Virus record (IMG/VR): IMGVR_UViG_3300020202_000031
Coordinates: 1 to 44,881 of that record
Strand: one strand, 5' to 3'
Length of the DNA stretch: 44,881 bases
Source of the DNA: a virus
The stretch's first letter is position 1. Each line of letters starts with the position of its first letter. Position numbers and translations under genes: made by a program. The notes below the pieces were generated by a model. It had not been told where the DNA came from. It saw only the letters and a program-made list of their open reading frames with translations, and made no database searches. Below, in pieces: positions 1,121-39,442 of the stretch.

Positions 1121-1596
1121 GCAAATCTCCCCCGAGCGTCTCGCGCTCGTGCTCTCCTGTTTTTCGCCTGTTCGGACAACGTTGCCCAGCGACAGTTATC
1201 TGCGCTGTAACCAAGGTTGTTATCTATACGCTCAAGCGTAAGTCCGTTTGACTCGCCCATGTCGGCTAAAAATCGTTCGAACGATGAGAGCCATGCTTCG
1301 CTTACGGTGATGCCGCGACCCCCATATCTCGGGTAGTCCTTTGCCTTCTCGTATGTGCATCGAGCTATCATGCCGCTCCAAATGCGGTGTTCTCGAGTCC
1401 TGGAGAGTCCGTGCCGGTACATCGGGTTCTTCTCTCCCGGCATTGGCGTTACCGGCTTATGACAGCCGCAGGACTTATTCTTCAACCCGGTGTGATAGTT
1501 AGTCTCAAACTCTTTGGAGCAAAGCGGGCATTCAAAGATTCCACGGTATCGATACTTCCCATCCGGTCGGATGAGAAATCTCTTAATGAGTCGCAT
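1117..1596 (-). CDS. Phage DNA-binding / HNH_3-AP2-like protein
   Basis: CxxC...CGC zinc-type N-terminus. C-terminal EHRIWSGMIARC...YGGRGITV...LERIDNNLGYSADNCRWATLSEQ matches a common phage family. ATGA overlap with the exonuclease gene. Confidence 0.5.
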   Translation of the reverse strand: MRLIKRFLIRPDGKYRYRGIFECPLCSKEFETNYHTGLKNKSCGCHKPVTPMPGEKNPMYRHGLSRTREHRIWSGMIARCTYEKAKDYPRYGGRGITVSEAWLSSFERFLADMGESNGLTLERIDNNLGYSADNCRWATLSEQAKNRRARARDARGRFA

Positions 1597-1618
1597 CTGC
1601 CCTCCCCGAGCGTGCTTG

Positions 1619-1951
1619 TTACTTGATTAATCCGCGAGCGCGATACCAAGCCTCAAGCTCGGCGACACTGCGAATGATCCGGTACGTACCGCCGCGTTTC
1701 TCGACTTGGTACTGAAACGCTTTCTGATGCTGCGACTGCACACCACCGGCCGCTTTGTACTCGATCCAGTCGACGCGCCCGTCTGGCAAGAAGCAGACAC
1801 AGTCAGGTAGGCCCTTCGCCTCGAAGGGCGAGAGAGCGCGATAAGCTTTAGCCTTCTCATCATACAGGCCCACGTTCTTCAGCTTGATCGCCCAGAAGCC
1901 CCAGTTGTTGAGTGCCTTCAGACACTCCCTCTCGATCTCCAGCTCCCTCAC
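1619..1951 (-). CDS. VRR-NUC domain nuclease
   Basis: GLPDCVCFLPDGRVDWIEYKAAGG..SQHQ fits the VRR-NUC PD..(D/E)XK...Q pattern. 110 aa, GTG start. Confidence 0.75.
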   Translation of the reverse strand: MRELEIERECLKALNNWGFWAIKLKNVGLYDEKAKAYRALSPFEAKGLPDCVCFLPDGRVDWIEYKAAGGVQSQHQKAFQYQVEKRGGTYRIIRSVAELEAWYRARGLIK

Positions 1952-3611
1952 TGGTACTCATAATAGAGTACTCAAGTAACTTGTCTCTACCTTTGGCGTT
2001 TTTTTCAACGCGAATGCGGACCCGCTGCGTCGGTATGATGAGACGACGCTCAATCGATCGAACATCAAAGTCCGAGCATCCAGCCGCGCGCACGAGATCT
2101 TCCATCAGCTTCTCGTTCTTCTGCCTCGACGCCTTGACGTACATCCACTGCGGCATCGAACGGATCACCATCTCTGGGTTCTTCCAGAAGAAGTTGAAGA
2201 TGACATCCGGGTCAGTTGTCTGAACCTTGAGCATCTTGTTCTCACGTCGCATCGTCTGGCTTCCCCAGCACGAGAACTCCATCAGCTGCACTTCCCATTC
2301 GGTGACCGTCTGCTTCGGACCTAAATACAGAACCGAGTCCTCGTCATTGACGAGCTTAAGCCTGGGCTTGCGCTCTTGTATCTGCGGCATCGTCCCGCAC
2401 TCGATACACGCGACAGGGTCCATGCCGTGCTCTGGGAACTGAAACGTCCCGCACACGTGGCACTGGATGCAGCGCCATTCGAACTCGAGATCCTGCGCCT
2501 TCTTCTTCGTGCCCGTAACAAACGGCGCATCAAGTGGCCCGCAGTTCTTGACGACCTCGCCGTAGTCGAGGACCAGACAATCAGTCTTGCCCGGCGCTGG
2601 CCTCAGCCCTCGCCCGACCATCTGCACATATAAGTTTGCAGCCTTGGTGGGTCGCAAGAGGACGAGTGCGTCGATCGGGGCGTAGTCGAATCCCTCTGCC
2701 ACGATTGTAACGAAGACCAAGTGCCGACAGCCAGGATTTGATTCGAACTCGCCAAGAGATAGTTCTCTCTCGTCGCCATCCAGTGCAGACGTAATGACTG
2801 CGCACTGCTCGCCAAATTCGCGCAGATGGTCAGCGATCCGTCCGGCATGTGAAATGTTAACGGCCGCCCAGATAATCTTCTTTCGATCATGCGTCTTCCC
2901 TAGAGCATCTTCAATCTGGATCCGGGTCTTGCCGTCATCTTGCACGAGCACGTCGAGGTCTCGGGCGGAGAAGTCTCCGGCCACCACCGACAGCTTCGAT
3001 GTATCATAGGTGTGAGATCGATCGGCTCCTCGGAGCTTCGCCTTAACGGTGTACCCTTTCTCAGTCGTCCACGTAAGAGTGCGACTAAAGTGTACCCGGG
3101 GAAAGATCTTATCCTCACCATAGATGTAACCCGACTCCCTAAACGGTGTTGCTGTTAAGCCAAGGACCTTGGCGTCCGGCAGCCGATTAACGATTGCACG
3201 GTACTGCCCTCCCTCATCCATGAGGCGGTGAGCCTCGTCACAGATGACGATATGGAACCCGGACGTCTCTCGACGAGCAGCCGTCTGCACGGATGCAATG
3301 ACAACCTCGCCGGTGAGATCAGTAGAACCCAGCGCCGCGCAGCAGATCGTTGCATCGAGATTTCCAAATCTCTTAAGATCACGTGCGAAAGACCGGATGA
3401 TGGCAATCTTTGGGACGAGCACCAACACACGAAGCTGAGGGTTGTCTCGCTTGACGTCGGCAATGAGGCCACTCGCTGTGGCGGTCTTTCCGGACCCCGT
3501 GGGGAGCTGCCATAGGACAGCCCTATCCCCTCCCCTCCAGATCGACCGTGCACAGCGAATGGCTTCAAGTTGGTAGTCCCTTAACTCAGTAGCTGATGCC
3601 ACCAGCAGCAT
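1860..3611 (-). CDS. Superfamily-2 DEAD/DEAH-box DNA helicase with internal zinc ribbon
   Basis: LPTGSGKT (Walker A), ICDEAH (motif II), LTATP, VGRGLR (motif VI), and CIQCHVCG...CIECG. The start is placed at Met22 of the tracked ORF to limit overlap with the upstream gene. The 3' end overlaps the VRR-NUC start by 92 nt. Confidence 0.85.
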   Translation of the reverse strand: MLLVASATELRDYQLEAIRCARSIWRGGDRAVLWQLPTGSGKTATASGLIADVKRDNPQLRVLVLVPKIAIIRSFARDLKRFGNLDATICCAALGSTDLTGEVVIASVQTAARRETSGFHIVICDEAHRLMDEGGQYRAIVNRLPDAKVLGLTATPFRESGYIYGEDKIFPRVHFSRTLTWTTEKGYTVKAKLRGADRSHTYDTSKLSVVAGDFSARDLDVLVQDDGKTRIQIEDALGKTHDRKKIIWAAVNISHAGRIADHLREFGEQCAVITSALDGDERELSLGEFESNPGCRHLVFVTIVAEGFDYAPIDALVLLRPTKAANLYVQMVGRGLRPAPGKTDCLVLDYGEVVKNCGPLDAPFVTGTKKKAQDLEFEWRCIQCHVCGTFQFPEHGMDPVACIECGTMPQIQERKPRLKLVNDEDSVLYLGPKQTVTEWEVQLMEFSCWGSQTMRRENKMLKVQTTDPDVIFNFFWKNPEMVIRSMPQWMYVKASRQKNEKLMEDLVRAAGCSDFDVRSIERRLIIPTQRVRIRVEKNAKGRDKLLEYSIMSTSEGAGDREGVSEGTQQLGLLGDQAEERGPV

Positions 3612-8711: not shown

Positions 8712-9278
8712 CTACGACGCCCGACGGCGCTTGAACGCGTTGAGCACGTCGTTATGGCGTAGACTCATCTCGATCTTGCGCACGTATGCCATGGTGGATG
8801 AAATGTTCTTGTGCCCAAGGTGGTCTTTCAGGAACAAGATGTCCTTACTTCCGGAATACAGGAATGCTGCGAAGGCTGACCTGAGTGAGTGAAGCGAGCT
8901 GCCCTGAGGCATACGAAGCCTCCGCTTGTACTTGGCGTAGAGCTTGCGAAGGGAGACCTTGCGGCTCTCGATGAGGTCAGCGTCCGACTGGTGGCCGCCA
9001 AGCCACTCGTAGGTGCGGAGATAGCGTCTGAGCTGGTGAGCGAAGTCAGGAGGCAGTGGGACAGGATGGTCGAGTGATCCTTTAACAGCGGTAATCTCGC
9101 ACACAGCGCGCTTTGATGAGACGTGGATGCAGTCCTCGGTCAAGGTCACCATCTCGTGTGTGCGCCCACCAAGACGCAGGAAGGCCTCCAGCACGAGCCG
9201 GTCGTTCGGGTCCTTGATGTATCGCTCGAGGTTCTCGAGGAGTGTTGAGGCTTGCTCAGGACTTAGGTTTAGAGCCAC
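8712..9278 (-). CDS. Minimal tyrosine site-specific recombinase (catalytic domain only)
   Basis: The catalytic set is present: R (GGRTHEM), K (AVKGS), HxxR (HSLRSAF), H (LGHKN), Y (STMAYV). At 188 aa there is no room for an N-terminal arm-binding domain. Confidence 0.75.
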   Translation of the reverse strand: MALNLSPEQASTLLENLERYIKDPNDRLVLEAFLRLGGRTHEMVTLTEDCIHVSSKRAVCEITAVKGSLDHPVPLPPDFAHQLRRYLRTYEWLGGHQSDADLIESRKVSLRKLYAKYKRRLRMPQGSSLHSLRSAFAAFLYSGSKDILFLKDHLGHKNISSTMAYVRKIEMSLRHNDVLNAFKRRRAS

Positions 9279-9429
9279 GGCGTGCGTCCTCCTCGTTAGA
9301 AGCGTTCTTCGAGCGGTCCTTGGTGCGTTCGCGCCTTAAGCGTGTCTCGTCCAGCACACGATCCACGCGGTTGTTGAGCTCCCTGAGCCAAGAGGTTTTG
9401 ATCGGGGGCTTTGGCGTCTTAGGACTCAT
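9256..9429 (-). CDS. Small basic protein (57 aa, below the ORF-track cutoff)
   Basis: My own translation: MSPKTPKPPIKTSWLRELNNRVDRVLDETRLRRERTKDRSKNASNEEDARRGSKPKS. ATGA overlap with the stop of the upstream gene at 9426-9429. Confidence 0.35.
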   Translation of the reverse strand: MSPKTPKPPIKTSWLRELNNRVDRVLDETRLRRERTKDRSKNASNEEDARRGSKPKS

Positions 9430-9785
9430 CGTGGACGGCCTTTCTTGCGAGCCCTCGGCGTGTCAGCGTCCCTCATCCGCTTGATAGCGCGCGCTACGTC
9501 AGCTGCCTTCGCCCCGGTGATCTGAGACACCCACACCACGATATCTTCATCCTTGTAGTGTTTGAGAGCATCGACGAACCGGTCAACGGCGTGCGCTCTA
9601 ATGGTAGATACGTCAGCAGCGCCGGAGTCGATAAGGTGGCGCACATCCTTCACTCCTTTACTCACGGCCTTGAGGCCTTGTACGGCGACCTGCAGGCGCT
9701 GAATGATCTCTTCGCTGAGCCTGGCCATGCTAGCGACTTCCTTTGATGTGAACGGCTTCGTATCGACAGGTGATGTTTTTCTCAT
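9426..9785 (-). CDS. Hypothetical protein (119 aa), first gene of the recombinase mini-operon
   Basis: ORF with a coding-like composition. No recognisable motif. Confidence 0.5.
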   Translation of the reverse strand: MRKTSPVDTKPFTSKEVASMARLSEEIIQRLQVAVQGLKAVSKGVKDVRHLIDSGAADVSTIRAHAVDRFVDALKHYKDEDIVVWVSQITGAKAADVARAIKRMRDADTPRARKKGRPR

Positions 9786-10558
9786 GCGTGGAGTCCCCTT
9801 GGGCTTTGGTGGTTAATGGCTCAGGCCTATGCATTCTTCGTTCCTCTCGCCTTGAGCTGACAAGGCATGGCTACGAAGATTCGAACGTTCGTAGCGTTTC
9901 TTTGCGGCATAAACAAGATGACTCTTATCGATTGGCGTTCATGATGTGCGGTCAATGTTTACTCGCACTCGCTTATTGTTGTGGGCGAGCGCACGACGTC
10001 ATCCACGACGCATCCCCTTACTCAGGTTACAGTTTCACGTGAAACAGTTTTACTTAGGTACTTGATGTGCAACTCGCTCGCCACGATTTCCGACAAGCGA
10101 AGTGCGTGGAATAATGGCGCTAAAGTAATTCATCGCGCGTAGCGCATGCGGAACTTCTGAACGGATTCATCGCAGCAACGCGTGAGCTCGAGCCAATATG
10201 AAGGGTTCATTAAGTAATTTCTGAGTGTAAAACTAATGAGCAAAACGAAGGTGAATCTGAACCTAAAATTCTAAAACTCTCGAGCTAGGTTTCTAAAAAC
10301 ACCATGTTTTCCAATACTTACCCGCTCGCTTATAGCCCTACCCGAGCGATCTGCACACAAATAGCCTGCGCGGGCTATGTGCGCACATGCAGTTTTCATA
10401 TGAAGGTTTCGTTTCGACTGCTGAGACCCGGGGGTGGGGGTGTTTTTTTCGATGAAAAATTGTATTTGGTCGCGCCTCCCACAAAAAATCGGAAAAACAA
10501 AAAAACCGACGCGCCTTACCTTACTCAAGTAGGTACTCAATCGTAATCTGTTCCCACG
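9786..10558. promoter_or_regulatory. 0.77-kb noncoding divergent region (switch / origin / ncRNA candidate)
   Basis: No credible ORF and visibly lower GC. Many palindromes: CGAACGTTCG (9883-9892), GTTTCACGTGAAAC (10032-10045), ATAGCC-N6-GGCTAT (10361-10378), ATGTGCGCACAT (10377-10388). Also TTACT-type words and a T7 run at 10442-10449. Confidence 0.5.
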
Positions 10559-10909
10559 ATGCCTGTACCCATCCGCAGAACGTATATCGTTGAGTCAGCC
10601 CCTGTCACAGAGCCCGCACAGCAAGAGCCGTTAAACACGGTTGTAGAGCGTGTAGCAGCCCAAATTCCTCTGCCATCCCCGCTCCCATTGGTGGTGCAGC
10701 AAGTCGAGATCCAGCTAATTTCTCGCGCACTCGAGTCCTCCGGCTATTGCGTAAGTAAAGCCAGCGGAGTACTCGGTATCTTACGTACTACGTTACTCGA
10801 TAAGGTACACAAGTACGGCCTGAAGCAAGAATTGCCAGGCTATGCGGCCAAGCTCAGGGAGCGAGCTCGTCGCAGACAGTACAAAGAGACCGGGGTGTGG
10901 GAGCCATGA
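10559..10909 (+). CDS. Fis-type HTH DNA-binding protein
   Basis: C-terminal VEIQLISRALESSGYCVSKASGVLGILRTTLLDKVHKYGL matches the HTH_8/Fis pattern (E..lI..AL....n.s.AA..LGi.R.TL..K...yGl). No SD precedes the ATG. Confidence 0.65.
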   Translation: MPVPIRRTYIVESAPVTEPAQQEPLNTVVERVAAQIPLPSPLPLVVQQVEIQLISRALESSGYCVSKASGVLGILRTTLLDKVHKYGLKQELPGYAAKLRERARRRQYKETGVWEP

Positions 10910-11010
10910 TCGATACAATCGGCCATTCGCCATTTGAAGCCTTGAGCTTGGTGTCAGCCACAGCTCTGTTTTCCATGTTTTTCATCAGCATCATCAGAAA
11001 GGACATCTAA
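10906..11010 (+). CDS. Hydrophobic micropeptide (34 aa)
   Basis: My own translation: MIDTIGHSPFEALSLVSATALFSMFFISIIRKDI. ATGA overlap upstream and TAATG overlap downstream. It exactly fills the gap between the flanking genes. Confidence 0.3.
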   Translation: MIDTIGHSPFEALSLVSATALFSMFFISIIRKDI

Positions 11011-12767
11011 TGACCCCATCTCTCAGACTTCTGGCGCTTGCCACCACCACGGCGATCGCCTGCAACGACGTAACGCCTCCGACAAGCGTCGTTACCGCCC
11101 CTCCCCCCTCCTCTACGGTGGGTGGAACGATCAAACTCGAGGCCGCAGCAAGCGATGACTCAGCCGTTGCTCGCGTTGAGATGATGATCGACGGAAAACT
11201 CGTCGCAACGGAGAAAGAAACGCCTTATTCGGCCACTTTCGACACGAAAACACTCCAAGACGGCGCCCATACGCTTGTTGCGATCGCGTTTGACGAGAAA
11301 GGCAACAAGACGGCGTCTGCTCCGGTCAGCTTCTCGGTCAAGAACGTCGTACAACCCCCCGTTGACCCGCCTACCCCGCCAGTTGCTGGCTGGACTGACT
11401 TCAAGCTCGCTCCCGACGCGATCAAGATCCATGTATCATCCTCTTTGGGTCTCGATTCAAACGACGGGAGCGAGTCGAAGCCTCTTAAGACCCTCAAAGC
11501 CGCTTATTCGAAGCTCCGGAACGGCAAGCCCGACCACTTGGTGCTTAAGCGTGGCGACACGTTCAAGGAAGCCTTCCCTTACTGGGAGAAGTCAGGTCGC
11601 TCAGCGACTGAGCCCATGGTGATCGGCGCGTATGGCGCTGGCACTGCCCGCCCTGTGGTGTCATCTGACGGTAACGTCCTCTCGACCCGCTCAAACATCA
11701 GCTTCATCGCAGTCCAGGGCCTGCGCTTCACGAGCCTCAACCGCGAGCCAGGCAGCTCGACGTTCAATACGAACGTGTCGAGTGACGCAGCCATCCGCTG
11801 GATGTCTAGAGGTCAGTTCCTTTTGCTTGAAGACATGCTTATCGACTTCCATCGCGTCGGTATCGTCTCAGAGCAGCCCGAAGCCCAGATGGAAGGCGCG
11901 CCGAAGGGCTGGACGAAGTGCGCAAGCTACTTCAAGAACCTCAAGATCCGCCGCTCAGTGATCGCGAACAACTGGAGCTACCCGTCAACCACGGAGGCTC
12001 GCAAGGGCGGCCATTCACAAGGTGCATATCTCCAGTGCGTTGATGGTCTCACCATGGAAGAGAACTTCTGGGACTCAAACGGCTACCACAAGGCCGTCTC
12101 TGGCGCTGTGCCCACGCAGTTCAACCACAACGTTTACTTGAACGCGAAATCAAAGAACGTCGTGGCCAAAGGTAACGTCTTCTCTCGAGGAGCAGCGACT
12201 GGCATCCAAGTCCGCACGGGCGGGATCTTTGAGAACAACTTAGTTGTCCAGAACCCTCAAGGCATCACCTATGGCATCGTTCGCGGCGGGAACAACCCGG
12301 AGGATCCGCAAGTTGTTCAAGGTGGCGTGACTGGCACGATCAAGGGGAACGTGTTCTTGGAAGGTGTTGACCTCGACGCCAATAACCCGCGCGCTCTTGC
12401 CGCTCAGATCGGCAATCTCAAGGACGTCGAGATGAGTGATAACGTCTTCGCCCACTACTCGCACATCGGCAAGCCCTACAACCACGGGTCAGTTGCGATC
12501 GACTGCGGCAACGGCATTGGACTCGGTAAGCTTGTCATGAAGAACAACGCGACGTGGAAGTGGGAACCCTGGCTCACGACCTCTGGCCCTTGCAAGAACA
12601 AGCCTGAAGAGTCTGGCACGGTGAAGACGAAGGCGATGGAGAAGAAGCTCGCTGACTACGCTCCTGACTTTTTTGAAGGCGCACGTAAGCAGTCGCGACT
12701 CACTTGGAATCAGAAGTACACGGCGACTGAGGCGGTCAAATACTTCCGCGCTCAGTTCGGTAAGTAA
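11010..12767 (+). CDS. Exported (possible lipoprotein) Ig-like plus right-handed beta-helix protein, polysaccharide lyase/hydrolase-like
   Basis: Signal-like N-terminus MTPSLRLLALATTTAIAC. A Big_7-type Ig domain (VGGTIKLEAAASDDSAVARVEMMIDG...PYSATFDT...GAHTLVAIAFDEKGN). Then beta-helix repeats (NHNVYLN, ENNLVVQN, GNVFLEG). Confidence 0.7.
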   Translation: MTPSLRLLALATTTAIACNDVTPPTSVVTAPPPSSTVGGTIKLEAAASDDSAVARVEMMIDGKLVATEKETPYSATFDTKTLQDGAHTLVAIAFDEKGNKTASAPVSFSVKNVVQPPVDPPTPPVAGWTDFKLAPDAIKIHVSSSLGLDSNDGSESKPLKTLKAAYSKLRNGKPDHLVLKRGDTFKEAFPYWEKSGRSATEPMVIGAYGAGTARPVVSSDGNVLSTRSNISFIAVQGLRFTSLNREPGSSTFNTNVSSDAAIRWMSRGQFLLLEDMLIDFHRVGIVSEQPEAQMEGAPKGWTKCASYFKNLKIRRSVIANNWSYPSTTEARKGGHSQGAYLQCVDGLTMEENFWDSNGYHKAVSGAVPTQFNHNVYLNAKSKNVVAKGNVFSRGAATGIQVRTGGIFENNLVVQNPQGITYGIVRGGNNPEDPQVVQGGVTGTIKGNVFLEGVDLDANNPRALAAQIGNLKDVEMSDNVFAHYSHIGKPYNHGSVAIDCGNGIGLGKLVMKNNATWKWEPWLTTSGPCKNKPEESGTVKTKAMEKKLADYAPDFFEGARKQSRLTWNQKYTATEAVKYFRAQFGK

Positions 12768-12933
12768 GAAACGGCAGACGGGGCACATCTATGGCTCCCA
12801 CAGCTCCAAGATCCCCGTCTTTCGACCCGGCATCCTCAGGTTAAGCCTGACCGCTCACCGGGGAGCGGTCTGACAACCGGAACAGCTTTGGTGACAGCCC
12901 GGAGAGACGGGCGCTTTTGAAGAAGGAGTTTTC

Positions 12934-13206
12934 ATGATCCCAGTAGCACCGAAATCGATCCAAGGACTCGCGAGCGCTGTTGCTCGTCGCGAAGGCAAGA
13001 AGAGCCAGGCCCGCATTGGCGAGGTTCGAGAGATCCTTGGCATCGTCTCTGATCTTCTGATCGAGACGATGGTCGTGGGCGAGAAATCAGTCGAGCTCCC
13101 GATCGCCGTTGTCCTCTACGAGGCAGGCGTTGCGCGCAAGAAGAAGAAAGCCAAGCCCAAGGGTGGCTTCGCGACCATCACCAAGATCAAGCAGCGAAGG
13201 AAGTGA
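12934..13206 (+). CDS. Small protein with a lysine-rich tail (90 aa)
   Basis: SD aaggag lies 8 nt upstream of the ATG. The C-terminus ARKKKKAKPKGG...KIKQRRK is strongly basic. No family recognised. Confidence 0.45.
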   Translation: MIPVAPKSIQGLASAVARREGKKSQARIGEVREILGIVSDLLIETMVVGEKSVELPIAVVLYEAGVARKKKKAKPKGGFATITKIKQRRK

Positions 13207-13245
13207 GGCGGAGCAGACCTTAAAAAAAAGAAAGGTCTGTTACCT

Positions 13246-14379
13246 ATGAAATCGATACTGTTCTCAACTCTTCTCACCGCGATCTCGGCTCAAGCAGTCG
13301 AGCCGACTGTCTTCTGCCCGAGCCCACTCGTGGCTGCGTGCGTGAGCCGCGAGACTCCTCCGCCACCTCCTCCTCCTGTTCCCGTGCCGACTCCTCCCCC
13401 CTCTGGCGGTGTCGTCATCTCGCCTTCTGACTCGCTTCAAGCGGCTGTCGATAAGGGCGGCACCGTGGTTCTCAAGGATGGCGAATACAAGGGGCCAGTC
13501 CGGATCAAGAAGGATGGCGTCACACTCGTCGCTCAAAACGCAGGCAAGGCTGTGATCAAGGCCGACTCAGGCGACAACCTCATCATCGACGCCTCGAACG
13601 TCACTGTTCGCGGGCTCGTCCTTCGCGGTGGCGGTGTGAGTGGAAAAGAATCTCACCATAACCATTTGGCTGCTAACCGCGTCGAGCGCGCGAGAGAGGA
13701 GATCCTCCTTGAAGACCTCACGATTGAAAAAGCAAGAGGTGTTGGACTGGCTCTTAACGGTGACAAGATCACAGCACGTCGACTTGTTGCGCGAGATAAC
13801 GGAGCAGCTGGAATCGGCGGGAGTCACGGAGAGGAGATACTTCTCGAAGACTCTAAGATCTTCGGTAACAACCTCATCGAGAAGAGAAGTGACGGTGGAG
13901 GTGGGAAGTTCACGCGTACGGATCGCGTGGTCCTTCGACGTGTTGAAGCCTATGGAAACGTAGGGCCTGGCATCTGGTTCGATATCTGGAACACGAACAC
14001 GACCATTGAAGACTGCTACTCCCACGACAACCTGGGCACGTCTAACATCCACGGTAAGGGGATCATGCTTGAGCTTCATGGTGGAGATAAGTCAGGCAAG
14101 CTCTCTGGCAAGTCGCGCCTCATCCGAAACCGGGTTGAGAACAACGACGTAGTGTCAGGGCGCTCGAAGGACCATCAGCGCGGGTTCAACATCTCGTCTG
14201 CTGCTGGCATTGAGATGATCGATAACATCGTTGCAGGTGGCGACACGCTCAACCTCAAAGACGCCTCAGGGCGCGAGATCAAGACACAAGACATCACCAT
14301 CCGGGGAACGAAGTTCCTCTCTGGTGGCCGCATCAACTGGGACGGGGCTTCTAAGTCCTGCTGCAAGATCGAGGAGTAG
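13246..14379 (+). CDS. Secreted right-handed parallel beta-helix protein
   Basis: Sec-type signal MKSILFSTLLTAISAQA|VEP, a proline linker PPPPPPPVPVPTPPP, then beta-helix repeat signatures (VTVRGLVLRGGG, ARDNGAAGIGG, KIFGNN, AYGNVGPGIWF). Confidence 0.7.
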   Translation: MKSILFSTLLTAISAQAVEPTVFCPSPLVAACVSRETPPPPPPPVPVPTPPPSGGVVISPSDSLQAAVDKGGTVVLKDGEYKGPVRIKKDGVTLVAQNAGKAVIKADSGDNLIIDASNVTVRGLVLRGGGVSGKESHHNHLAANRVERAREEILLEDLTIEKARGVGLALNGDKITARRLVARDNGAAGIGGSHGEEILLEDSKIFGNNLIEKRSDGGGGKFTRTDRVVLRRVEAYGNVGPGIWFDIWNTNTTIEDCYSHDNLGTSNIHGKGIMLELHGGDKSGKLSGKSRLIRNRVENNDVVSGRSKDHQRGFNISSAAGIEMIDNIVAGGDTLNLKDASGREIKTQDITIRGTKFLSGGRINWDGASKSCCKIEE

Positions 14380-14381
14380 AA

Positions 14382-14501
14382 ATGTTTAGGTGGCTCAGGC
14401 AGCTCTTCTGTTACCACGTGTGGGCGGTTCGTCTGCCTGAGTCACCGCTCTACATCTGCATCCACTGCGGCAAAGAGTCCCACGCAAGGAGTCTCATCTA
14501 G
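14382..14501 (+). CDS. Cys/His-rich micro-protein (39 aa)
   Basis: My own translation: MFRWLRQLFCYHVWAVRLPESPLYICIHCGKESHARSLI. SD gaggag lies 5 nt upstream. The stop overlaps the next GTG start by 1 nt. Confidence 0.3.
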   Translation: MFRWLRQLFCYHVWAVRLPESPLYICIHCGKESHARSLI

Positions 14502-14695
14502 TGCTTAAGCTACTCTGCCGTATCGGCATCCACAACGCCAAGCCCACTGGCATGTTCTACGTAACGAAGACCAAGGAAGAGTCTGAGGTCCGCCACTGTC
14601 GCTGGTGTCGCCGCGGGATCGTGAGGCTTAAGGATCATGTCGTCATGCTCACGCCAGGCTTCATGCGTGATGCGGGGTATGGAGGTGGGAAGTGA
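14501..14695 (+). CDS. Small Cys/His protein (64 aa)
   Basis: GTG start with aaggag 9 nt upstream. LLCRIGIHN...CRWCRRG, and an N-terminal pattern similar to the preceding micro-protein. Confidence 0.45.
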   Translation: MLKLLCRIGIHNAKPTGMFYVTKTKEESEVRHCRWCRRGIVRLKDHVVMLTPGFMRDAGYGGGK

Positions 14696-15081
14696 CGTTC
14701 GGTGAGGCATACAATAGCGGTCGTCCATTCCGTCGAGAAAGCTGGGATGAAGGGCGTTGGATTGGGCCATTCAAGCACTATGAAGTTCTTCCTCTCCTGG
14801 TCGAAGACTGGTTCGGGACTGACTACGAGGTTAAGCCCGTTGAGCCCAAATGGCTGAAGATCTGGTACTCGACGCGCTATGAGGGCGGCCTGATTGGTAA
14901 GCCCACGAAGACCCTTGGAGAGAGCGACCGGATCCTCCTCATCGACTCGCGGCCCGTGAAGGCGCTGGTTGAGGCGATGAAGCTGGCGAAAGGCCGCTTC
15001 TGGGATGACCGCGCTATCGACGCTACTCAGATTGAGTCTGAGCTTTGCGCTGTCGAGCAGCTCCTCAAGGAGTCACCGTGA
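14692..15081 (+). CDS. Hypothetical protein with a DUF2829(Tad2)-like N-terminal motif
   Basis: MTFGEAYNSGRPFRRESWDEGRWI...LLVEDWFGTDYEV resembles the recalled ends of DUF2829 (M.FgeAl..G..vrR.gW ... dlla.DWev), but the core is shortened and an extra domain of about 80 aa follows. GTGA overlap at the start. Confidence 0.3.
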   Translation: MTFGEAYNSGRPFRRESWDEGRWIGPFKHYEVLPLLVEDWFGTDYEVKPVEPKWLKIWYSTRYEGGLIGKPTKTLGESDRILLIDSRPVKALVEAMKLAKGRFWDDRAIDATQIESELCAVEQLLKESP

Positions 15082-15254
15082 CTAAGGTCAAGTATTCAAA
15101 TGGGCGAGAACTGATTCACATCTTTAGGCGCATTCCGCATTCGCTTCTGTGCATGTTCAAACTGAGCATGCCGATTGATCTCTACCGCGCGGATGGCCAG
15201 TGTCTGGCTATCGCATGCAGCTGTGGAAAGGTGTTCTGGAGGTTCGATCCATGA
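15078..15254 (+). CDS. Small protein (58 aa)
   Basis: An in-frame GTG overlaps the upstream stop (GTGA). The tracked longer start would overlap the preceding gene. Confidence 0.35.
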   Translation: MTKVKYSNGRELIHIFRRIPHSLLCMFKLSMPIDLYRADGQCLAIACSCGKVFWRFDP

Positions 15255-15454
15255 CCGACGAGAAGAAGCCCGCCAAGACATTCACCGAAATCATGAACGA
15301 AGTCACGAGGGACGAAAGCTTCCAAGTCGAGTGCCCCAACTGCGGCACCAAGGTCTTCTTCAAGATGATGAACGACGACGGCACTCGGTGCTGCTTTTGC
15401 CCAAGCTTGTTTATGCGAGCCATCCTAGATTTGAAGAAGGGGAGTGGGCAATGA
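15251..15454 (+). CDS. Zinc-ribbon protein (67 aa)
   Basis: ATGA overlap at the start. Two Cys pairs: CPNCG...CCFCP. Confidence 0.45.
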   Translation: MTDEKKPAKTFTEIMNEVTRDESFQVECPNCGTKVFFKMMNDDGTRCCFCPSLFMRAILDLKKGSGQ

Positions 15455-15681
15455 CCTCCCCCGAACAACTCCGCCGCTGGGTCTCGATGCACGGCGACCT
15501 CCCCGCAGGACAGACAGCTGAGAAGCTTCTGACGGCGATCTACGCGCTAGAGGACATCTTGACTGAGTGCCGACAGGCCCGGGCCTTCATGGCGACAGAC
15601 GACAAAGGCGCAGCACTCGAGTGTCTGCGAGATATCGAGGAGTGCGTACGCACGACTCTACAGAAGATCAGGAGGGAATGA
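15451..15681 (+). CDS. Small helical protein (76 aa)
   Basis: ATGA overlap at 15451. The remainder of tracked ORF 15175-15681 overlaps other genes. Confidence 0.45.
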   Translation: MTSPEQLRRWVSMHGDLPAGQTAEKLLTAIYALEDILTECRQARAFMATDDKGAALECLRDIEECVRTTLQKIRRE

Positions 15682-15824
15682 TGGCTGAGTACGCAGCAAC
15701 GATCGTGTTTCTGGCGATGTCGGGGGTGTCGGCACTGGCGTTTCTAATCGGCTACGCGCAAGGTGAGCTTAGCGCCAGGAAGAGGCCCGCCGAGCGTATC
15801 GCGGCAGGAAAGGATGGGGAGTGA
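15678..15824 (+). CDS. Single-pass membrane micro-protein (48 aa)
   Basis: ATGA overlap. Hydrophobic stretch AATIVFLAMSGVSALAFLIGYA followed by a basic tail. Confidence 0.4.
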   Translation: MMAEYAATIVFLAMSGVSALAFLIGYAQGELSARKRPAERIAAGKDGE

Positions 15825-16033
15825 TGGCGAAAGAAAAGTTCCCGCACTACTGGCTTTGCGACGACTGCGCGACCGCTAGGGGCGGCATCTGGCCAAAGGG
15901 CCACGTCTGCACGGTGACCCAAGGCGACTGCAAGTATTGCGGCATGAAGAACGCCATCCTTATTCCATGGGTTGATTACAACTGGCCTCGCGACAAACAA
16001 GCCGACCTGAAGGCGAAGGTGACTCGTGACTAA
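15821..16033 (+). CDS. Zinc-finger protein (70 aa)
   Basis: Cys pattern CDDC...C...CKYCG. GTGA-type coupling upstream. Confidence 0.45.
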   Translation: MMAKEKFPHYWLCDDCATARGGIWPKGHVCTVTQGDCKYCGMKNAILIPWVDYNWPRDKQADLKAKVTRD

Positions 16034-16337
16034 CGACGCCCAGGCCATGAGCGTGGCGAGAGAGCTAGATGAACTCCTCAGCGATGTTCCTACAGGTGGG
16101 TACGACAAACGAGTCGATCTCATCGAGCACGCCCTGATCCAAGCCGAGCGCAGGGGTGCCGTTCGCGAGCTAGAGCGCGTGAAGTCTGCCATCGCAGGCC
16201 AGATTCAAATCTACCGTGAGCAGCGGAGCACATCGGATGCGGCGGCACTATTGCCGTTGAAGCGGGCAGTGGATCACTGGCTAGAGTTCGAGCAGTCGCG
16301 TGGCGCACTCCTCGACAGCGGAAAGGGTGAGCTATGA
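16026..16337 (+). CDS. Hypothetical protein (103 aa)
   Basis: GTG start overlapping the upstream gene end. Helical, acidic. Confidence 0.45.
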   Translation: MTNDAQAMSVARELDELLSDVPTGGYDKRVDLIEHALIQAERRGAVRELERVKSAIAGQIQIYREQRSTSDAAALLPLKRAVDHWLEFEQSRGALLDSGKGEL

Positions 16338-16687
16338 GCGACGGCCCTGAAAGCGTGGCGAGGCGACTGATCCGCACGTATATCGGACACGAGGTATGCG
16401 ACGGGCCCGTTAACATCGCTAAGTGGGATGACCTAGCGCTGATCGTCGCACAAGCCCTCCGCGCGCACGGCGAGGCTGAGTATAGACGTGGGGTGAAAGA
16501 AGCGTCGAGGAACGTGCCGAGTGAGGAGATGATTGATGCGCAAGCTAGAGGCTACATCTCAACAAGCTATCCGCCTGGCCCTAATTTCATTGAACACCTT
16601 AGACATGGATTCAGGTTAGGTGGCCGGTGGGTCGCAGACTACGTACTCGACAGCGCGCTCGTCGCGAAGGGGGGTGGGGATGAGTGA
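16334..16687 (+). CDS. Hypothetical protein (117 aa), paralog A
   Basis: ATGA overlap. Shares WDDLALIVAQAL / ...HGFRLGGRWVADYV with the gene at 16790 (WRKLVALIADAL / ...HAGFSTGARWAISKM). Confidence 0.5.
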   Translation: MSDGPESVARRLIRTYIGHEVCDGPVNIAKWDDLALIVAQALRAHGEAEYRRGVKEASRNVPSEEMIDAQARGYISTSYPPGPNFIEHLRHGFRLGGRWVADYVLDSALVAKGGGDE

Positions 16688-16793
16688 GTGGTTCTTGGGA
16701 TTGACATCGTACTCGCAGCTTCTCTTCATTGTGTGGGCCGGCATCGTCCTGATGGTCTGGGCTCCATTCACGTCACGAGGGTCCAAGCTATGA
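16680..16793 (+). CDS. Transmembrane micropeptide (37 aa)
   Basis: My own translation: MSEWFLGLTSYSQLLFIVWAGIVLMVWAPFTSRGSKL. It overlaps the upstream stop by 8 nt and shares an ATGA with the downstream start. Confidence 0.35.
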   Translation: MSEWFLGLTSYSQLLFIVWAGIVLMVWAPFTSRGSKL

Positions 16794-17059
16794 CCGACCG
16801 CAAGGCATGGGCCGAAGAGATCTTAGATGAGTGGCGTGAGTCAGTCTCTGACTACCAGGTTATGTCGCGCTCTGATTGGAGGAAGCTTGTCGCGCTCATC
16901 GCAGACGCTCTGCCGAAAGATCCGCCCGAAGAGGAAGAGATGGAGCGCGAAGCTCTCCTTCAAGGCAACAAGAACGGCGCATGGCTCGAAGACAGCTGGC
17001 ACGCTGGCTTCTCTACCGGGGCTCGCTGGGCAATTTCCAAGATGAGAGGTGCGAAGTGA
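16790..17059 (+). CDS. Hypothetical protein (89 aa), paralog B
   Basis: Internal Met35 of tracked ORF 16688-17059. Similar to the 16334-16687 product. Confidence 0.45.
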   Translation: MTDRKAWAEEILDEWRESVSDYQVMSRSDWRKLVALIADALPKDPPEEEEMEREALLQGNKNGAWLEDSWHAGFSTGARWAISKMRGAK

Positions 17060-17253
17060 GACGGGCCGTCCGACACATGCTCAATCGCCGCTTTGGCCAC
17101 ACCATTTGCGGCAGGGACGAAGTCTGGCGCGTCGTCCAGGACTGGAAAGACGTAACGTGCCAGCGTTGCCAGAAGATCGCGCAGAGGCAGCAAGAGCCTA
17201 GCGTGGTCGAGCAGAAGCCAGCTACTACGAGCAAGGACACGGCAAGCCGATGA
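17056..17253 (+). CDS. Small Cys protein (65 aa)
   Basis: GTG at 17056 overlaps the upstream stop. Pattern HTICG...CQRCQ. Confidence 0.4.
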   Translation: MRRAVRHMLNRRFGHTICGRDEVWRVVQDWKDVTCQRCQKIAQRQQEPSVVEQKPATTSKDTASR

Positions 17254-18001: not shown

Positions 18002-18301
18002 GTGGAAAGGGGGCGTCAAGTGCAGAACGGGAGAGGGTACACATTTGGTACAGAAAGGCAGCTTCGTGCTGCGGAGGAGTACTACCAAAAGGTACTCACC
18101 ATCAACGCGCTCAGGAACGCCGCCCTTCGCAGCTGCCTAAATATAGCACATACGAGTCTGGAGGAGCTGCTTCAGATCACGGCCGTTGAAGAACTGCACT
18201 GCAAGGTTCGTGACACGATCCAGTCCATCGAGGCCAGGCTGGCTGAGGGGGTGGCAAAATCGACCGTAGCCCCGACGAGCGTCACGGTGGAAGTGTTGTG
18301 A
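18002..18301 (+). CDS. Hypothetical protein (99 aa), first gene of the late block
   Basis: GTG start. No recognisable motif. Confidence 0.4.
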   Translation: MERGRQVQNGRGYTFGTERQLRAAEEYYQKVLTINALRNAALRSCLNIAHTSLEELLQITAVEELHCKVRDTIQSIEARLAEGVAKSTVAPTSVTVEVL

Positions 18302-18882
18302 GAGCGATCGTCCACAATCTCCAGAAAAAGCCTGAGGTGTTCTTGGAGCTCCTGTCGGGACACTGCCCAGACATCGTCCTTGCCCAGGAAGTCACAGACG
18401 GCCTGCCACTTGATGCGGCGAACGTGTCGAGCCTTGGCTACGGTACAGGCATCTACTCGACAACGGATGTCACGAACATCAAGCGCATCAACTCACCGCA
18501 CGCTGAGTTCATCCCGACTATGCGAAAGAAGACAACGATCGGTACATCGCACGGTGTCGAGTGGGTGAGCTTCCACGGCTATAACGGCACGCCGTTTCGG
18601 AGCGCAAAGAAGCTTACAGCGCACGTGAGGGCGGCTCTCCAGGCACTTGGATCTGGCCCGTGTGTGTTCGCTGGGGACTTCAACACCTGGTCACAGACTC
18701 ACTTTGAGTCGGTGAAGTTCGAGATGATCAAGCACGGTTTCACCGGCCATTACTCAGCCCCCTACAAAGATCGCCCCCTGGCACTTGATCACGTCTTTGT
18801 GCGCGGATTGTGGATTGAGAGCGCTTACTACTACGAGACGGCAAGCGATCACCCGTGCCTTGAGGTGGTGCTCCGTGCGTGA
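18298..18882 (+). CDS. Compact endonuclease/exonuclease/phosphatase (EEP) family enzyme
   Basis: The EEP motifs occur in order: VHNLQ (Asn), DIVLAQEV (Glu), FAGDFN, LDHVFV, SDHPCLEV. Only 194 aa and no signal peptide. Confidence 0.7.
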   Translation: MRAIVHNLQKKPEVFLELLSGHCPDIVLAQEVTDGLPLDAANVSSLGYGTGIYSTTDVTNIKRINSPHAEFIPTMRKKTTIGTSHGVEWVSFHGYNGTPFRSAKKLTAHVRAALQALGSGPCVFAGDFNTWSQTHFESVKFEMIKHGFTGHYSAPYKDRPLALDHVFVRGLWIESAYYYETASDHPCLEVVLRA

Positions 18883-19123
18883 ACTGAAGGTCCTCGTCCG
18901 CGGAACCGGAGAAGCCGGGCACGACAAGAACTACTACGAGCTGAGGACGCTTGAGCGCCCTACCCGTACACAGATCCGTGAGGCTCAAGTTGAACTGGGC
19001 TTCCCGCCGTCTGGTTACGAGGGGCCACATAACATCAGTTCAAAGAACTACCTCTGGAACTCCAATGGTCGCCGCATCGTTGGTTACGTGACCGTCTGGA
19101 CGAGCAGGGCCACATGCGATTGA
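18875..19123 (+). CDS. Hypothetical protein (82 aa)
   Basis: An in-frame GTG at 18875 overlaps the end of the EEP gene. No motif. Confidence 0.4.
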   Translation: MRELKVLVRGTGEAGHDKNYYELRTLERPTRTQIREAQVELGFPPSGYEGPHNISSKNYLWNSNGRRIVGYVTVWTSRATCD

Positions 19124-19716
19124 CGTACTGCCCGTTTGCCAAGCGCACGGCGAAAGAGATGCCGACTCAAGGTGAGTACCGCAAGGGCCACCCGGAAGGC
19201 GCTGTCGTCCATTACACGGCGGGCCGCCACAACCTAACTGCGATCGATTCAGCGATTGCTAACGGCCTGTCCTATTTCCTCATCACGCACGACGGGACGG
19301 TCTACCAAGGCGCGCCGCTCAATCGGTGGGGTGTGCACGCGGGTAAGAGCGCTTATCCTGGGCTTGGCAAAGGCGTCTCTCAGTACCTCGTCGGGATCGA
19401 GCTCACCAATGCGGGGCTCCTCTCGGAGAAGGGTCTTGCGTGGTTCGGGCAGCCAGTCTCCGACTCACGACGGATCAAAGAGCCTCGTTATCAAGGTGAA
19501 GCGCCGGGCCTCTACGAGGCGTACACGACATCCCAGGAGAAGAGTCTCTTTGCGCTCCTCCAATGGCTCAAGTCAAACGCTCCGGACGTGTTCTCCTATG
19601 ACTTCGTCGTTGGCCATAACGAGGTCTGCGTTCCCGCGGGTCGAAAGCAAGATCCGGGCGGCGCTCTTTCCATGTCGATGCCAGCTCTAAGGGAGGCCCT
19701 GAAACGTGCACGATAA
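19114..19716 (+). CDS. N-acetylmuramoyl-L-alanine amidase endolysin (Amidase_2/PGRP fold)
   Basis: VVHYTAG, GVHAG, VGIELTNAG and GHNEV...RKQDPG are the T7-lysozyme-type zinc amidase motifs. Confidence 0.8.
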   Translation: MRLTYCPFAKRTAKEMPTQGEYRKGHPEGAVVHYTAGRHNLTAIDSAIANGLSYFLITHDGTVYQGAPLNRWGVHAGKSAYPGLGKGVSQYLVGIELTNAGLLSEKGLAWFGQPVSDSRRIKEPRYQGEAPGLYEAYTTSQEKSLFALLQWLKSNAPDVFSYDFVVGHNEVCVPAGRKQDPGGALSMSMPALREALKRAR

Positions 19717-31609: not shown

Positions 31610-31846
31610 ATGGGTTGGCTCACTCTGATCCTCGAGGCGCTTCGTGCGATCCCGAAGATCATCCAGCTCGTTCAAACGCTGATGGAAGCTCAGCGCAAGG
31701 CTCAGGAACAGCGTCTGATTGATGAGACGCAGAAGGCGGTCAAGGATGGCGACACTCGAACGATCGAAGAGAACATTGGTAGTCCTCGTGCTGGGGCTCC
31801 TTCTGACCTCGACGGCGTCGTGCGTAGACCTTCGAAAGAGGGTTGA
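31610..31846 (+). CDS. Small protein (78 aa) with an amphipathic N-terminus
   Basis: MGWLTLILEALRAIPKIIQLV followed by a charged helix. Its 3' 101 nt overlap the next ORF in another frame. Confidence 0.4.
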   Translation: MGWLTLILEALRAIPKIIQLVQTLMEAQRKAQEQRLIDETQKAVKDGDTRTIEENIGSPRAGAPSDLDGVVRRPSKEG

Positions 31847-32090
31847 CGCTGTCGTCTGGGTTGGTGACGCGGCGAACGCTGGCGTCTACCGCTCGGTGAA
31901 GTGCACGCCCGCAGCTGAGCTTGAGGGCCTTTGCAAAGTGAAGTGTCCGAAGGACGAGTCCGAGTGCAAGGAAACCTACGAGGAGTTCCTGCCAGCGAGT
32001 CATCCTACGTTTAACCGTATGCGCGCGTTTCTCGACGACGATCTAAATCGCCTGCTCGAAGAAGCGATGAAAAAGTGCGGAGGCAAGTAA
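31746..32090 (+). CDS. Exported Cys-rich protein, possible lipoprotein (114 aa)
   Basis: MATLERSKRTLVVLVLGLLLTSTASC has a signal-like n- and h-region and ends in Cys (relaxed lipobox). There are 6 further Cys. The stop abuts the fibre gene start (TAAATG). Confidence 0.45.
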   Translation: MATLERSKRTLVVLVLGLLLTSTASCVDLRKRVDAVVWVGDAANAGVYRSVKCTPAAELEGLCKVKCPKDESECKETYEEFLPASHPTFNRMRAFLDDDLNRLLEEAMKKCGGK

Positions 32091-39079: not shown

Positions 39080-39442
39080 ATGTTACCACTTCTTGCAGCG
39101 GTCGGAGCCCTTGGAACTGGCTTAGTCAGCCTGACAAACGCTCGCGCCAACAACGCCGAAGCAGCCCGTCGCGAGCGCCTCAATGGAGAACTCGCAAGCC
39201 TCGACACGCGCTTTGGCGCCTTCCAGAAGGGTAACTCCCGCGAGCGTCTTGGAATGAACCCGCTCGAACGGAAGTCTATGCTCGGCGCCGCTCTAAGTGG
39301 CGGGCTTTCGGGCGCACTTCAAGGCGCGAATGTCGCCTCCGCCATTGATAGCCAGAACGCCTACAAGAGTCTCCTCAGCCGTTTGTCGGCAGGCCAAGGC
39401 GGTAACGAAGCCATCCGCATGATCAAGGAGCTGAAGCCGTGA
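39080..39442 (+). CDS. Small protein with an N-terminal hydrophobic segment (120 aa)
   Basis: Begins MLPLLAAVGALGTGLVSL. SD gggagg upstream. Confidence 0.45.
   Translation: MLPLLAAVGALGTGLVSLTNARANNAEAARRERLNGELASLDTRFGAFQKGNSRERLGMNPLERKSMLGAALSGGLSGALQGANVASAIDSQNAYKSLLSRLSAGQGGNEAIRMIKELKP

Follow-up and report, generated by a model that had tools for sequence, protein, structure and literature searches.

The stretch of DNA considered here, hereafter the window, is the whole of the IMG/VR virus record IMGVR_UViG_3300020202_000031 (44,881 nt), and the subject of this work is a run of five open reading frames (ORFs), all on the + strand, between positions 10559 and 14379. Two of these encode right-handed beta-helix proteins of 585 and 377 amino acids (aa) with N-termini of the type that directs export; the other three encode a helix-turn-helix (HTH) protein, a hydrophobic micropeptide and a 90-aa protein (Table 1). 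The same five ORFs were called by an independent gene caller on the ENA copy of the contig. The initial annotation described five co-oriented genes directly downstream of a long noncoding region and far from the tail genes, and this inventory is confirmed: the ORFs are present, the gap upstream of them is 770 nt long, and the tail module lies at 32-42 kb of the circular map. The descriptions of the individual genes hold as well, namely a Fis-type HTH (Pfam HTH_8, above its cut-off), a 34-aa hydrophobic ORF coupled at both ends (through ATGA and TAATG overlaps), a 585-aa protein with an immunoglobulin (Ig)-like domain, a beta-helix and a lipobox-like start (Big_7, the AlphaFold2 (AF2) model and PROSITE PS51257, respectively), a 90-aa protein with a lysine-rich tail (rich in both Lys and Arg), and a 377-aa protein with an AQA↓V signal, a polyproline linker and a beta-helix (by signal rules, Pfam and AF2; the arrow marks the predicted cleavage site here and below). 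The real unit is a two-gene cassette of the 585-aa and 377-aa proteins, not a five-gene system.

In the 585-aa protein, a signal- or lipobox-like segment (residues 1-18) precedes the Ig-like domain (~24-110); a linker rich in Pro (113-123) leads on to the beta-helix (139-525), and a helical segment conserved at the C-terminus follows at 547-581 (ARKQSRLTWNQKYTA..YFRAQFGK). Pfam detects Big_7 at residues 24-90 (E 7e-17) and places Beta_helix slightly under its cut-off; the AF2 model, computed from a 27-homologue alignment with a pLDDT of 84.0, has the Ig domain at 40-110 and ends in C-terminal helices. The nearest structures found by Foldseek belong to glycoside hydrolase family 136 (GH136; E 3e-9), with a template-modelling (TM) score of ~0.35 and a root-mean-square deviation of ~10 A. 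The family profile, A3, matches the GH136 lacto-N-biosidases LnbX, ErLnb136 and TnX (PDB 5GQC, 6KQS, 7V6M) with E values of 5e-20 to 1e-11, over profile positions ~87-211 only. The feature held in common is the helix cap, which corresponds to window residues ~139-222 and carries the motif YVSSS.G.D.NDG...P.KT...A......PD..LLKRGD.F. Past this N-terminal cap no sequence alignment between the family and GH136 was obtained, and the GH136 hits obtained here have no match to AR.QSR..W...YTA, the helical motif conserved at the C-terminus of the 585-aa protein. No LnbY-like chaperone was recognised near the window enzymes; the 34-aa and 90-aa products have no family hits, and no LnbY sequence was compared. 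The invariant residues of the 585-aa family are E274, H373/Y376, N389, N410 and N478. Judged by its sequence, the protein is placed in an uncharacterised family whose N-terminal cap is GH136-like.

The 377-aa protein comprises a signal peptide (1-17), Cys24, Cys32, a poly-Pro linker (~36-53), the helix and a C-terminal SCC motif. Pfam Beta_helix is detected at E 3e-12, and the AF2 model (39-homologue alignment, pLDDT 87.8) is a right-handed beta-helix from residue 56 to 376. In the models of both enzymes, which are confident, a disordered N-terminus of ~26-28 residues is followed by a linker and then by the right-handed beta-helix. Foldseek places AlgE4 and AlgE6 nearest to the 377-aa model (E 3e-8, TM score 0.5-0.6), together with polysaccharide lyases of families PL6 and PL9 and alginate lyases, and tailspikes lower. 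A profile of 39 family members matches the GH120 beta-xylosidase XylC from Thermoanaerobacterium saccharolyticum (PDB 3VST) with an E value of 6e-47. Most of this score is contributed by an N-terminal cap and a beta-sandwich that are held by cellular members only: the ~250-position N-terminal part of the profile, which matches XylC 2-283, occurs in cellular homologues and nowhere else. The core of the profile scores 31.5 bits against XylC (i-E 7e-7).

Within the shared beta-helix, XylC residues E353, K358, D382 and E405 align with window residues D216, K221, D246 and E276 (in the profile alignment only). Across the 39 sequences K221 and D246 do not vary, and the conservation of E276 is at least 90%; the codons lie at 13906-13908 (K221), 13981-13983 (D246) and 14071-14073 (E276). 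In XylC, D382 is the nucleophile, E405 is the acid/base and K358 hydrogen-bonds D382 (PMC3507262). Both catalytic residues of XylC have counterparts in this alignment, and the best guess for the window protein is therefore the mechanism of a retaining glycosidase. The beta-sandwich of XylC (76-200) supplies Trp113, which stacks at the -1 subsite and has been called indispensable (PMC3507262). This domain, Trp113 included, is absent from the window protein, in which the signal peptide and Pro linker run directly into the helix at residue 56. XylC has 638 aa with cap and beta-sandwich, whereas the window protein has 377 aa and neither; XylC is also a tetramer for which no signal peptide is described (PMC3507262), in contrast to the predicted export of the window protein. 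The 377-aa protein is best described, from these alignments, as a truncated GH120-derived glycosidase that would keep the catalytic centre and has lost the pocket-closing domain. It is a relative of GH120 and not a member by the structural definition of that family, and its substrate is probably something other than a xylo-oligosaccharide.

Two further assignments were considered and rejected. The catalytic motif of AlgE, YG(F/I)DPH(D/E) (YGFDPHE in AlgE4 and AlgE6), aligns to a non-conserved stretch of the 377-aa protein (KARGVGLALNGD; profile 'ngaGasvagd'), and AlgE has a gap where the Lys221 loop of the window protein stands; a mannuronan epimerase or alginate lyase was rejected on this basis. 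A PL6 or PL9 lyase was rejected in turn, with profile matches restricted to the cap region that the window protein does not have. In the Foldseek comparison that was initially suggested, GH136 is nearest to the 585-aa protein, and profile comparison leads to GH120 for the 377-aa protein; the catalytic residues of GH136 could not be aligned with the 585-aa protein.

The synteny survey that had been proposed was carried out, and only the two enzyme genes recur together, in a 34.7-kb contig (L001) that has its own primase, helicase and terminase; the 585-type gene recurs alone in another genome (L021). The comparison covers L001 apart from 12.8 kb of the contig, and its tail module was not seen in the part covered. 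When all ORFs of the window were compared with L001 by blastp, the two enzymes were the only matches (61% and 59% identity), in the same order and accompanied by a third paralogue. L001 is the only other genome found with both enzymes, and the HTH, micropeptide and 90-aa genes are absent from it, which does not bear out the initial view of a five-gene unit with its own Fis-type regulator. Of the orthologues of the 585-aa protein, P0002 (61% identity), which is devoid of the Ig domain, and P0083 are encoded in unrelated phage genomes; P0035 and P0036 are orthologues of the 377-aa protein, with 59-60% identity. P0083, encoded by L021, is an orthologue of the 585-aa protein with 48% (BLASTP) to 53% (HMMER) identity, Ig domain included, and was recovered by an exhaustive HMMER search, having been missed by a word-indexed one.

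The GC content of the L021 genome is 46.6%, that of the window 56.9%, and blastp finds nothing further in common between L021 and either the window or L001; the GC content of the P0083 gene matches that of its own genome. Here (L021 8229-11608) the P0083 gene comes directly after an M15 endolysin gene, holin-like transmembrane genes and a spanin-like lipoprotein gene (LALFLTS↓C), at the end of the late operon and next to a CI-like HTH_3 repressor. A gene for a 162-aa lipoprotein (FLFG↓C; L021 11850-12338, - strand) is located between P0083 and this repressor. In L001 and a further contig, L007, the beta-helix genes adjoin fibre-like and collagen-like genes just upstream of the terminase. By these comparisons, the enzyme genes belong to phages and pass from one unrelated phage to another; they occur with a signal or without one, and their place in the genome varies.

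The export signals of both enzymes were judged by rules only (PROSITE PS51257, AXA and hydrophobicity). The 377-aa protein begins with MKS, ILFSTLLTAIS and AQA↓VE in succession, with a lysine at position 2 and an uncharged hydrophobic (h-) region at 3-14, as in a textbook Sec signal. The N-terminus of the 585-aa protein is MTPSLRLLALATTTAIA↓C, with Arg6 and an h-region at 7-17; PS51257 is matched at Cys18 (AIA↓C), and the AIA site doubles as an AXA site for signal peptidase I. The stricter lipobox [LVI][ASTVI][GAS]C is not matched by this protein, which has A at -3. Export-type N-termini are found in ~4 of the ~60-70 proteins of the window genome, two of which are the beta-helix pair. In orthologues with 57-61% identity to the window proteins the signal feature is kept and its sequence has diverged: the predicted sites are AFA↓C15 in P0002, AQA↓I in P0035, and ALA↓Q both in P0036 and in the 390-aa paralogue of L001, and in all of these a Cys and a linker rich in Pro come after the cleavage motif. 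A location outside the cytoplasm is hinted at further by the Cys residues just past the predicted cleavage site and by the conservation of the C-terminal SCC motif. P0083 has no signal peptide, with a good ribosome-binding site (RBS) directly before its ATG, and export is therefore optional within the 585-aa family and not one of its defining features.

Among cellular homologues, export-type N-termini were counted by a crude hydrophobicity rule in 19 of 29 and 31 of 38 members of the two families. Of the homologues of the 585-aa protein, P0003, P0005, P0007 and P0206 carry the motif LE.LE.R..(L/F)S instead of or besides a classical signal peptide; this is presumably the planctomycete-type N-terminal motif of secreted proteins. 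The export of both enzymes, as claimed in the initial annotation, is well supported as a prediction: both have rule-based signals that are kept in P0002, P0035 and P0036, the exception being the signal-less orthologue P0083. Signal-like N-termini also occur on proteins encoded downstream of the beta-helix genes, on a 970-aa fibre-like protein (14156-17068) and a 392-aa collagen-repeat protein (18047-19225) in L001, and on the product of a fibre-like gene (1455-3167) in L007. The fibre-like proteins of the two contigs have dissimilar signals (MTSKLLALVALVCSAFAWA and MKSKILWALAFLGVSAFA) and a nearly identical mature N-terminus (DTPGPVLNKTCP). Exported tail-fibre-like proteins in a phage genome are odd.

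Neither enzyme matches a PHROG tail family or has a recognisable N-terminal particle-binding domain, in agreement with the initial description; a signal-like segment is followed by the Ig domain in the 585-aa protein and by the Pro linker in the 377-aa protein. Both window genes lie outside the tail module, and the L021 copy follows the lysis cassette. The window's own tail-fibre and tail genes, among them a 617-aa tail fibre with typical repeats (32091-33944), are without signal-like N-termini. Inside the tail module, a 120-aa protein (39080-39442, + strand) has a hydrophobic N-terminal segment (MLPLLAAVGALGTGLVSL) and is the fourth of the few window proteins that start in this way. Next to the tail-fibre gene there is a lipoprotein-like gene of 114 aa (31746-32090, + strand; MATLERSKRTLVVLVLGLLLTSTAS↓C, six Cys) that ends 1 base before it, and for which no family match was found. 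The T5 llp gene adjoins the gene for the receptor-binding protein of that phage, and cor adjoins tail-fibre genes; by likeness to this layout, the 114-aa gene may be considered a candidate superinfection-exclusion lipoprotein.

The cellular relatives of both enzymes are distant. Identity to cellular proteins reaches at most ~38% (42-43% over short local segments) and is 27-38% over the helix, and the cellular proteins are longer. All 13 genome hits of the 377-aa family are in Phycisphaerae (metagenome-assembled genomes of Tepidisphaerales and Phycisphaerales, several from peat or soil), with 27-35% identity, and the named homologues of the 585-aa family are planctomycetal too. We infer that both enzymes descend from secreted families that are common in Planctomycetota. 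The possibility that the two also occur as neighbours in cellular genomes was discarded, as at no locus of the 13 in Phycisphaerae is the 377-like gene accompanied by a 585-like one. A recent capture from the host was likewise rejected: the codon use and GC content of the module are like those of the rest of the phage. Neither the close cellular similarity nor the retained cellular architecture that would mark a host-derived auxiliary metabolic gene was found. A further homologue, P0009 (579 aa), lacks a signal peptide and is 34% identical over the helix; it is encoded on a 373-kb ENA contig (L006, 8001-13878), followed by a 99-aa and a 1,283-aa Laminin_G_3 product, with a PDDEXK nuclease gene nearby, in what is possibly a prophage or giant-phage tail region.

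Table 1. Coordinates of the five-ORF region and of the integrase gene in the window.
Feature	Position	Strand	Basis
116-aa Fis-type HTH protein	10559-10909	+	Pfam HTH_8
34-aa hydrophobic ORF (MIDTIGHSPFEALSLVSATALFSMFFISIIRKDI)	10906-11010 from ATG (10897 with upstream GTG)	+	Gene caller
585-aa Ig and beta-helix protein	11010-12767	+	Pfam, AF2
166-nt spacer with three hairpins	12768-12933	+	Sequence
90-aa protein, Lys/Arg-rich tail	12934-13206	+	ORF, RBS AAGGAG
377-aa beta-helix protein	13246-14379	+	Pfam, AF2
Full-length tyrosine recombinase/integrase, 392 aa	42535-43713	-	

The remaining genes of the region are best regarded as neighbours, and we infer that the HTH protein, the 34-aa peptide and the 90-aa protein are not obligate parts of the cassette. 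In the 116-aa protein, HTH_8 is C-terminal (residues ~44-90; E 6e-7, 29.5 bits against a cut-off of 22). The protein bears a weak resemblance to the C-terminal HTH of FleQ, NtrC-type activators and Fis, and stays below all NCBIfam full-length cut-offs. Its gene opens the rightward arm and faces a 119-aa leftward gene across the 770-nt gap, a layout that would place it at the position of a Cro-like switch regulator. It is probably a switch or early regulator of the phage and not specific to the enzymes; no HTH_8 gene was found upstream of the cassette in L001 or L021, nor any blastp match there to the 116-aa protein.

The ATG of the 34-aa ORF at 10906 overlaps the TGA of the HTH gene (10907-10909; ATGA), and its own TAA (11008-11010) overlaps the ATG of the 585-aa gene at 11010 (TAATG, 11008-11012). 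Support for this ORF is limited to its exact fit in a 100-nt gap and its hydrophobicity. It has no family match and no counterpart upstream of P0002 or P0083, and it is considered a plausible candidate gene, possibly for a single-pass membrane peptide. The 90-aa protein lacks a signal peptide, and searches of Pfam, NCBIfam, the PDB and PADLOC gave no match to it; a weak match (E 1.3e-3) links it to phrog_16492, a PHROG of unknown function. In L001 the enzyme genes are separated by a gap of 126 nt that contains no ORF, so that there is no 90-aa gene in this position. The hairpins of the spacer downstream of the 585-aa gene include GACCGCTC-ACCGGG-GAGCGGTC and GCCCG-GAGAGA-CGGGC followed by GCTTTTG, and from these the spacer could be an attenuator or a terminator; its fold is no better than that of shuffled sequences (z-score -0.95), and a scan for consensus terminators was empty there. 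PADLOC gave no defence-system match.

The genome as a whole is that of a temperate tailed phage. The window is a closed circle with a unit of 44,754 bp, in which nt 1-127 are identical to 44755-44881 (a k-mer overlap left by the assembler); in its ENA copy the contig has 44,895 bp, and subtraction of 141 (k = 141) gives the same unit size. The break points differ among three assemblies of this genome. Its gene content includes an integrase, a helicase, a primase, a large terminase, a P22-like portal and an internal-virion or tail-appendage protein, and an Amidase_2 protein (19114-19716) is the endolysin candidate. Besides the full-length integrase there is a 188-aa tyrosine recombinase (8712-9278, - strand) that resembles only the C-terminal catalytic half of Xer/integrase models. 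No match to the region or to either enzyme was found in GenBank phages (blastn, tblastn), no relative was found in IMG/VR scans with the 377-aa family, the 585-aa protein and the terminase, and scans of metagenome contigs gave no match. The non-coding gap of ~770 nt (9786-10558) between the divergent arms has a GC content of ~49%, compared with 57%, and contains a short palindrome (ACAGTTTCAC/GTGAAACAGT, 10029-10048). Neither an Rfam family nor a tRNA was detected in the whole window, the gap included. A scan of 9300-15000 for sigma-70 promoters and terminators found sites no more numerous than in shuffled sequence, and the gap has no + strand sigma-70 consensus. From gene sharing alone, the host is likely a Phycisphaerae planctomycete.

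The reading preferred here, held tentatively and at a probability of roughly 0.45, is that the two genes form a cassette for glycanases which are not part of the virion, are exported by Sec and attack a glycan of the host envelope or matrix, for progeny release or receptor removal. The enzyme genes stand at the head of the rightward arm and are coupled to its first gene, and are therefore probably transcribed with the early genes. Signal rules and the comparison of orthologues suggest that Sec would carry both proteins over the inner membrane. The 585-aa protein may then be lipidated at Cys18 and tethered to the membrane by its Pro-rich linker, or be cleaved after AIA, and the 377-aa protein would be freed into the periplasm or the medium. 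Outside the cytoplasm, both would cleave a glycan that belongs to the host itself, in its envelope or its exopolysaccharide. In the 377-aa protein, Asp246 would act as the nucleophile and Glu276 as the acid/base, with Lys221 and Asp216 as helpers, probably on an open groove, because the beta-sandwich that closes the -1 pocket of XylC has been lost. The phage would benefit if progeny were freed from matrix and debris, if the glycan receptor were stripped so that infected cells and debris would neither trap phage nor admit superinfecting phage, or from both.

Several observations weigh against this proposal. Both export and timing are predicted; in the 585-aa protein the A at -3 makes the lipobox atypical, and the hydrophobicity of the h-region is no more than moderate. 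The three phages have the genes at different places (in the early arm, before the terminase and after the lysis genes), and therefore no common timing can be read from synteny; moreover, the genes have been found on only three or four contigs. The link to GH120 comes from the profile and not from the single sequence, which in a phmmer search of the PDB gave no relevant match at E <= 1, and the profile core scores higher on AlgE epimerases (~45-47 bits) than on the XylC core. Nothing marks the substrate as a host-surface rather than an environmental glycan, and the cellular homologue P0044 sits among GH2-like and rhamnogalacturonan-lyase-like genes, in a setting of nutrient degradation.

This last point leads to the alternative that the enzymes are auxiliary or lysogenic-conversion carbohydrate-active enzymes (CAZymes), two extra secreted glycanases that would improve the nutrition of a polysaccharide-degrading planctomycete host, in lysogeny or infection, from environmental polymers of plant, algal or microbial origin. 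Both families consist of secreted enzymes in cells, the 377-aa family is GH120-like, and the phage has an integrase. There is also precedent, in that SignalP signal peptides were found on 3,261 of the 64,678 prophage CAZymes catalogued (5%; PMC13507307), and glycoside hydrolases encoded by viruses are documented for peat soils (PMC6786970). Against this role stand identities of 48-61% between unrelated phages compared with the lower values to cellular proteins, the fully phage-like composition, and the trimming of the phage versions, from which the GH120 beta-sandwich, the N-terminal cap and accessory domains are gone. One orthologue, in addition, is located in a lysis cassette and has no signal peptide, and a survey of viral CAZyme annotations has argued that most are core infection functions in entry or lysis (bioRxiv 10.1101/2024.12.20.629349). 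The auxiliary alternative is considered unlikely. A virion role is distinctly less probable in our estimate. The enzymes would in this case be depolymerases of the particle (tailspikes or side fibres) encoded off the tail module, with hydrophobic N-termini that serve, for example, as assembly or anchoring segments. Such a role would account for the Foldseek matches to the tailspikes Det7, CBA120 TSP2 and Depo32 (E 1e-5 to 1e-4), for best BFVD matches that are uncharacterised Caudovirales beta-helix proteins, and for exchange among unrelated phages, a typical trait of receptor-binding proteins; virion proteins often carry Ig-like domains, and both the L001 and L007 neighbourhoods and the place of P0083 at the end of the late operon would fit. 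However, neither a particle-binding N-terminal domain nor a PHROG tail match is present, enzyme structures outrank tailspikes in Foldseek, and the nearest cellular homologues are secreted enzymes. The N-termini behave as true signal peptides across orthologues, and since the fibre-like neighbours in L001 and L007 bear signals too, adjacency to them is no argument for cytoplasmic assembly. The window phage, furthermore, has a signal-less tail fibre and tail genes of its own.

Finally, the proteins could be exported binders or decoys without catalytic activity, which mask a surface glycan or receptor (exclusion of the T5 Llp/Cor type) or alter adhesion. The lipobox-like signal and Ig domain of the 585-aa protein would suit such a role, as would the absence of assignable catalytic residues in its family, the second lipoprotein gene that abuts the tail-fibre gene in the window phage, and the exported fibre-like, adhesin-like proteins that accompany the cassette in L001 and L007. 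Against it, one Lys and one Asp are invariant and one Glu nearly so over 39 homologues of the 377-aa family, all three in alignment with the catalytic centre of XylC, the 585-aa family has invariant acidic and polar residues in its helix (E274, H373/Y376, N389, N410), and there is no PADLOC match; the binder proposal is regarded as very unlikely. A bolder form of the preferred glycanase reading can also be stated, although it is doubtful as it stands. The pair would be an enzymatic receptor-destroying device of Planctomycetota phages, expressed early and exported by Sec, with one member tethered as a lipoprotein and one free, that strips the adsorption glycan, so that neither infected cells nor lysis debris would capture progeny or let in rival phages. 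It would meet, in the manner of a neuraminidase, the problem for which T5 has Llp; the cassette would hop among phages that share a host surface, and L001 would extend it with exported fibre-like proteins.

Free, soluble phage depolymerases are among the closest documented classes. PghP and a levanase of Bacillus phage phiNIT1 and the soluble forms of the TP-84 depolymerase are examples, with proposed roles in progeny spread and in stripping neighbouring cells (PMC6966330, PMC10131341). Like these, the window enzymes are predicted to be phage-encoded degraders of glycan or capsule that are soluble outside the particle, and the signal-less P0083, encoded after a lysis cassette, fits the class directly. 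The free depolymerases are, however, thought to be released mainly by lysis or to arise from alternative starts, whereas the window pair has Sec-type signals, one of them lipoprotein-like, and is encoded in the early arm. In view of these free depolymerases and of the prophage CAZymes with signals cited above, the initial designation of the module as an undescribed system is too strong. Routing through Sec by an N-terminal signal is a likeness to the exported endolysin Lys44 of Oenococcus phage fOg44 and to signal-arrest-release (SAR) endolysins, which build up outside the cytoplasm before lysis (PMC6116005). Lys44 and the SAR endolysins are peptidoglycan hydrolases in lysis cassettes, in contrast to the window pair, which is separate from the Amidase_2 endolysin candidate.

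Llp of T5 and Cor are small early lipoproteins of the outer envelope that block the receptor of their own phage and so protect infected cells and progeny. A functional likeness to the putative 585-aa lipoprotein is possible, but Llp and Cor are not enzymes, and there is no relation in sequence or fold. Vibrio RbmB, Pantoea WceF and the AlgE-type epimerases and lyases are secreted bacterial enzymes of the beta-helix fold that are monomeric and remodel the exopolysaccharide of the cell that makes them. RbmB and AlgE4/AlgE6 are among the structural neighbours of the 377-aa model, and WceF has been described as tailspike-like (PMC7949094). RbmB, WceF and the AlgE-type enzymes are chromosomal, whereas the window enzymes are phage-borne. 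What is new is the combination: a pair that hops between phages and joins a lipoprotein-like to a secreted enzyme, with a truncated GH120-type site, a second family that is uncharacterised, and a probable planctomycete host.

If the preferred reading is true, phage depolymerases, known as virion spikes or as by-products of lysis, could also be sent to the envelope deliberately by host export, as a cassette of two enzymes that passes between unrelated phages. It would also offer a testable model for the way in which phages of polysaccharide-rich, poorly studied hosts escape the matrix or destroy their own receptor. The probable hosts in this case are soil or peat Phycisphaerae, for which, to our knowledge, little phage biology has been described. 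The same question bears on how viral "CAZyme" genes in soil viromes are to be read, as auxiliary functions in carbon cycling or as core functions of infection. The truncated GH120-like enzyme and the uncharacterised family of the 585-aa protein are, in addition, candidates for new glycanase specificities.

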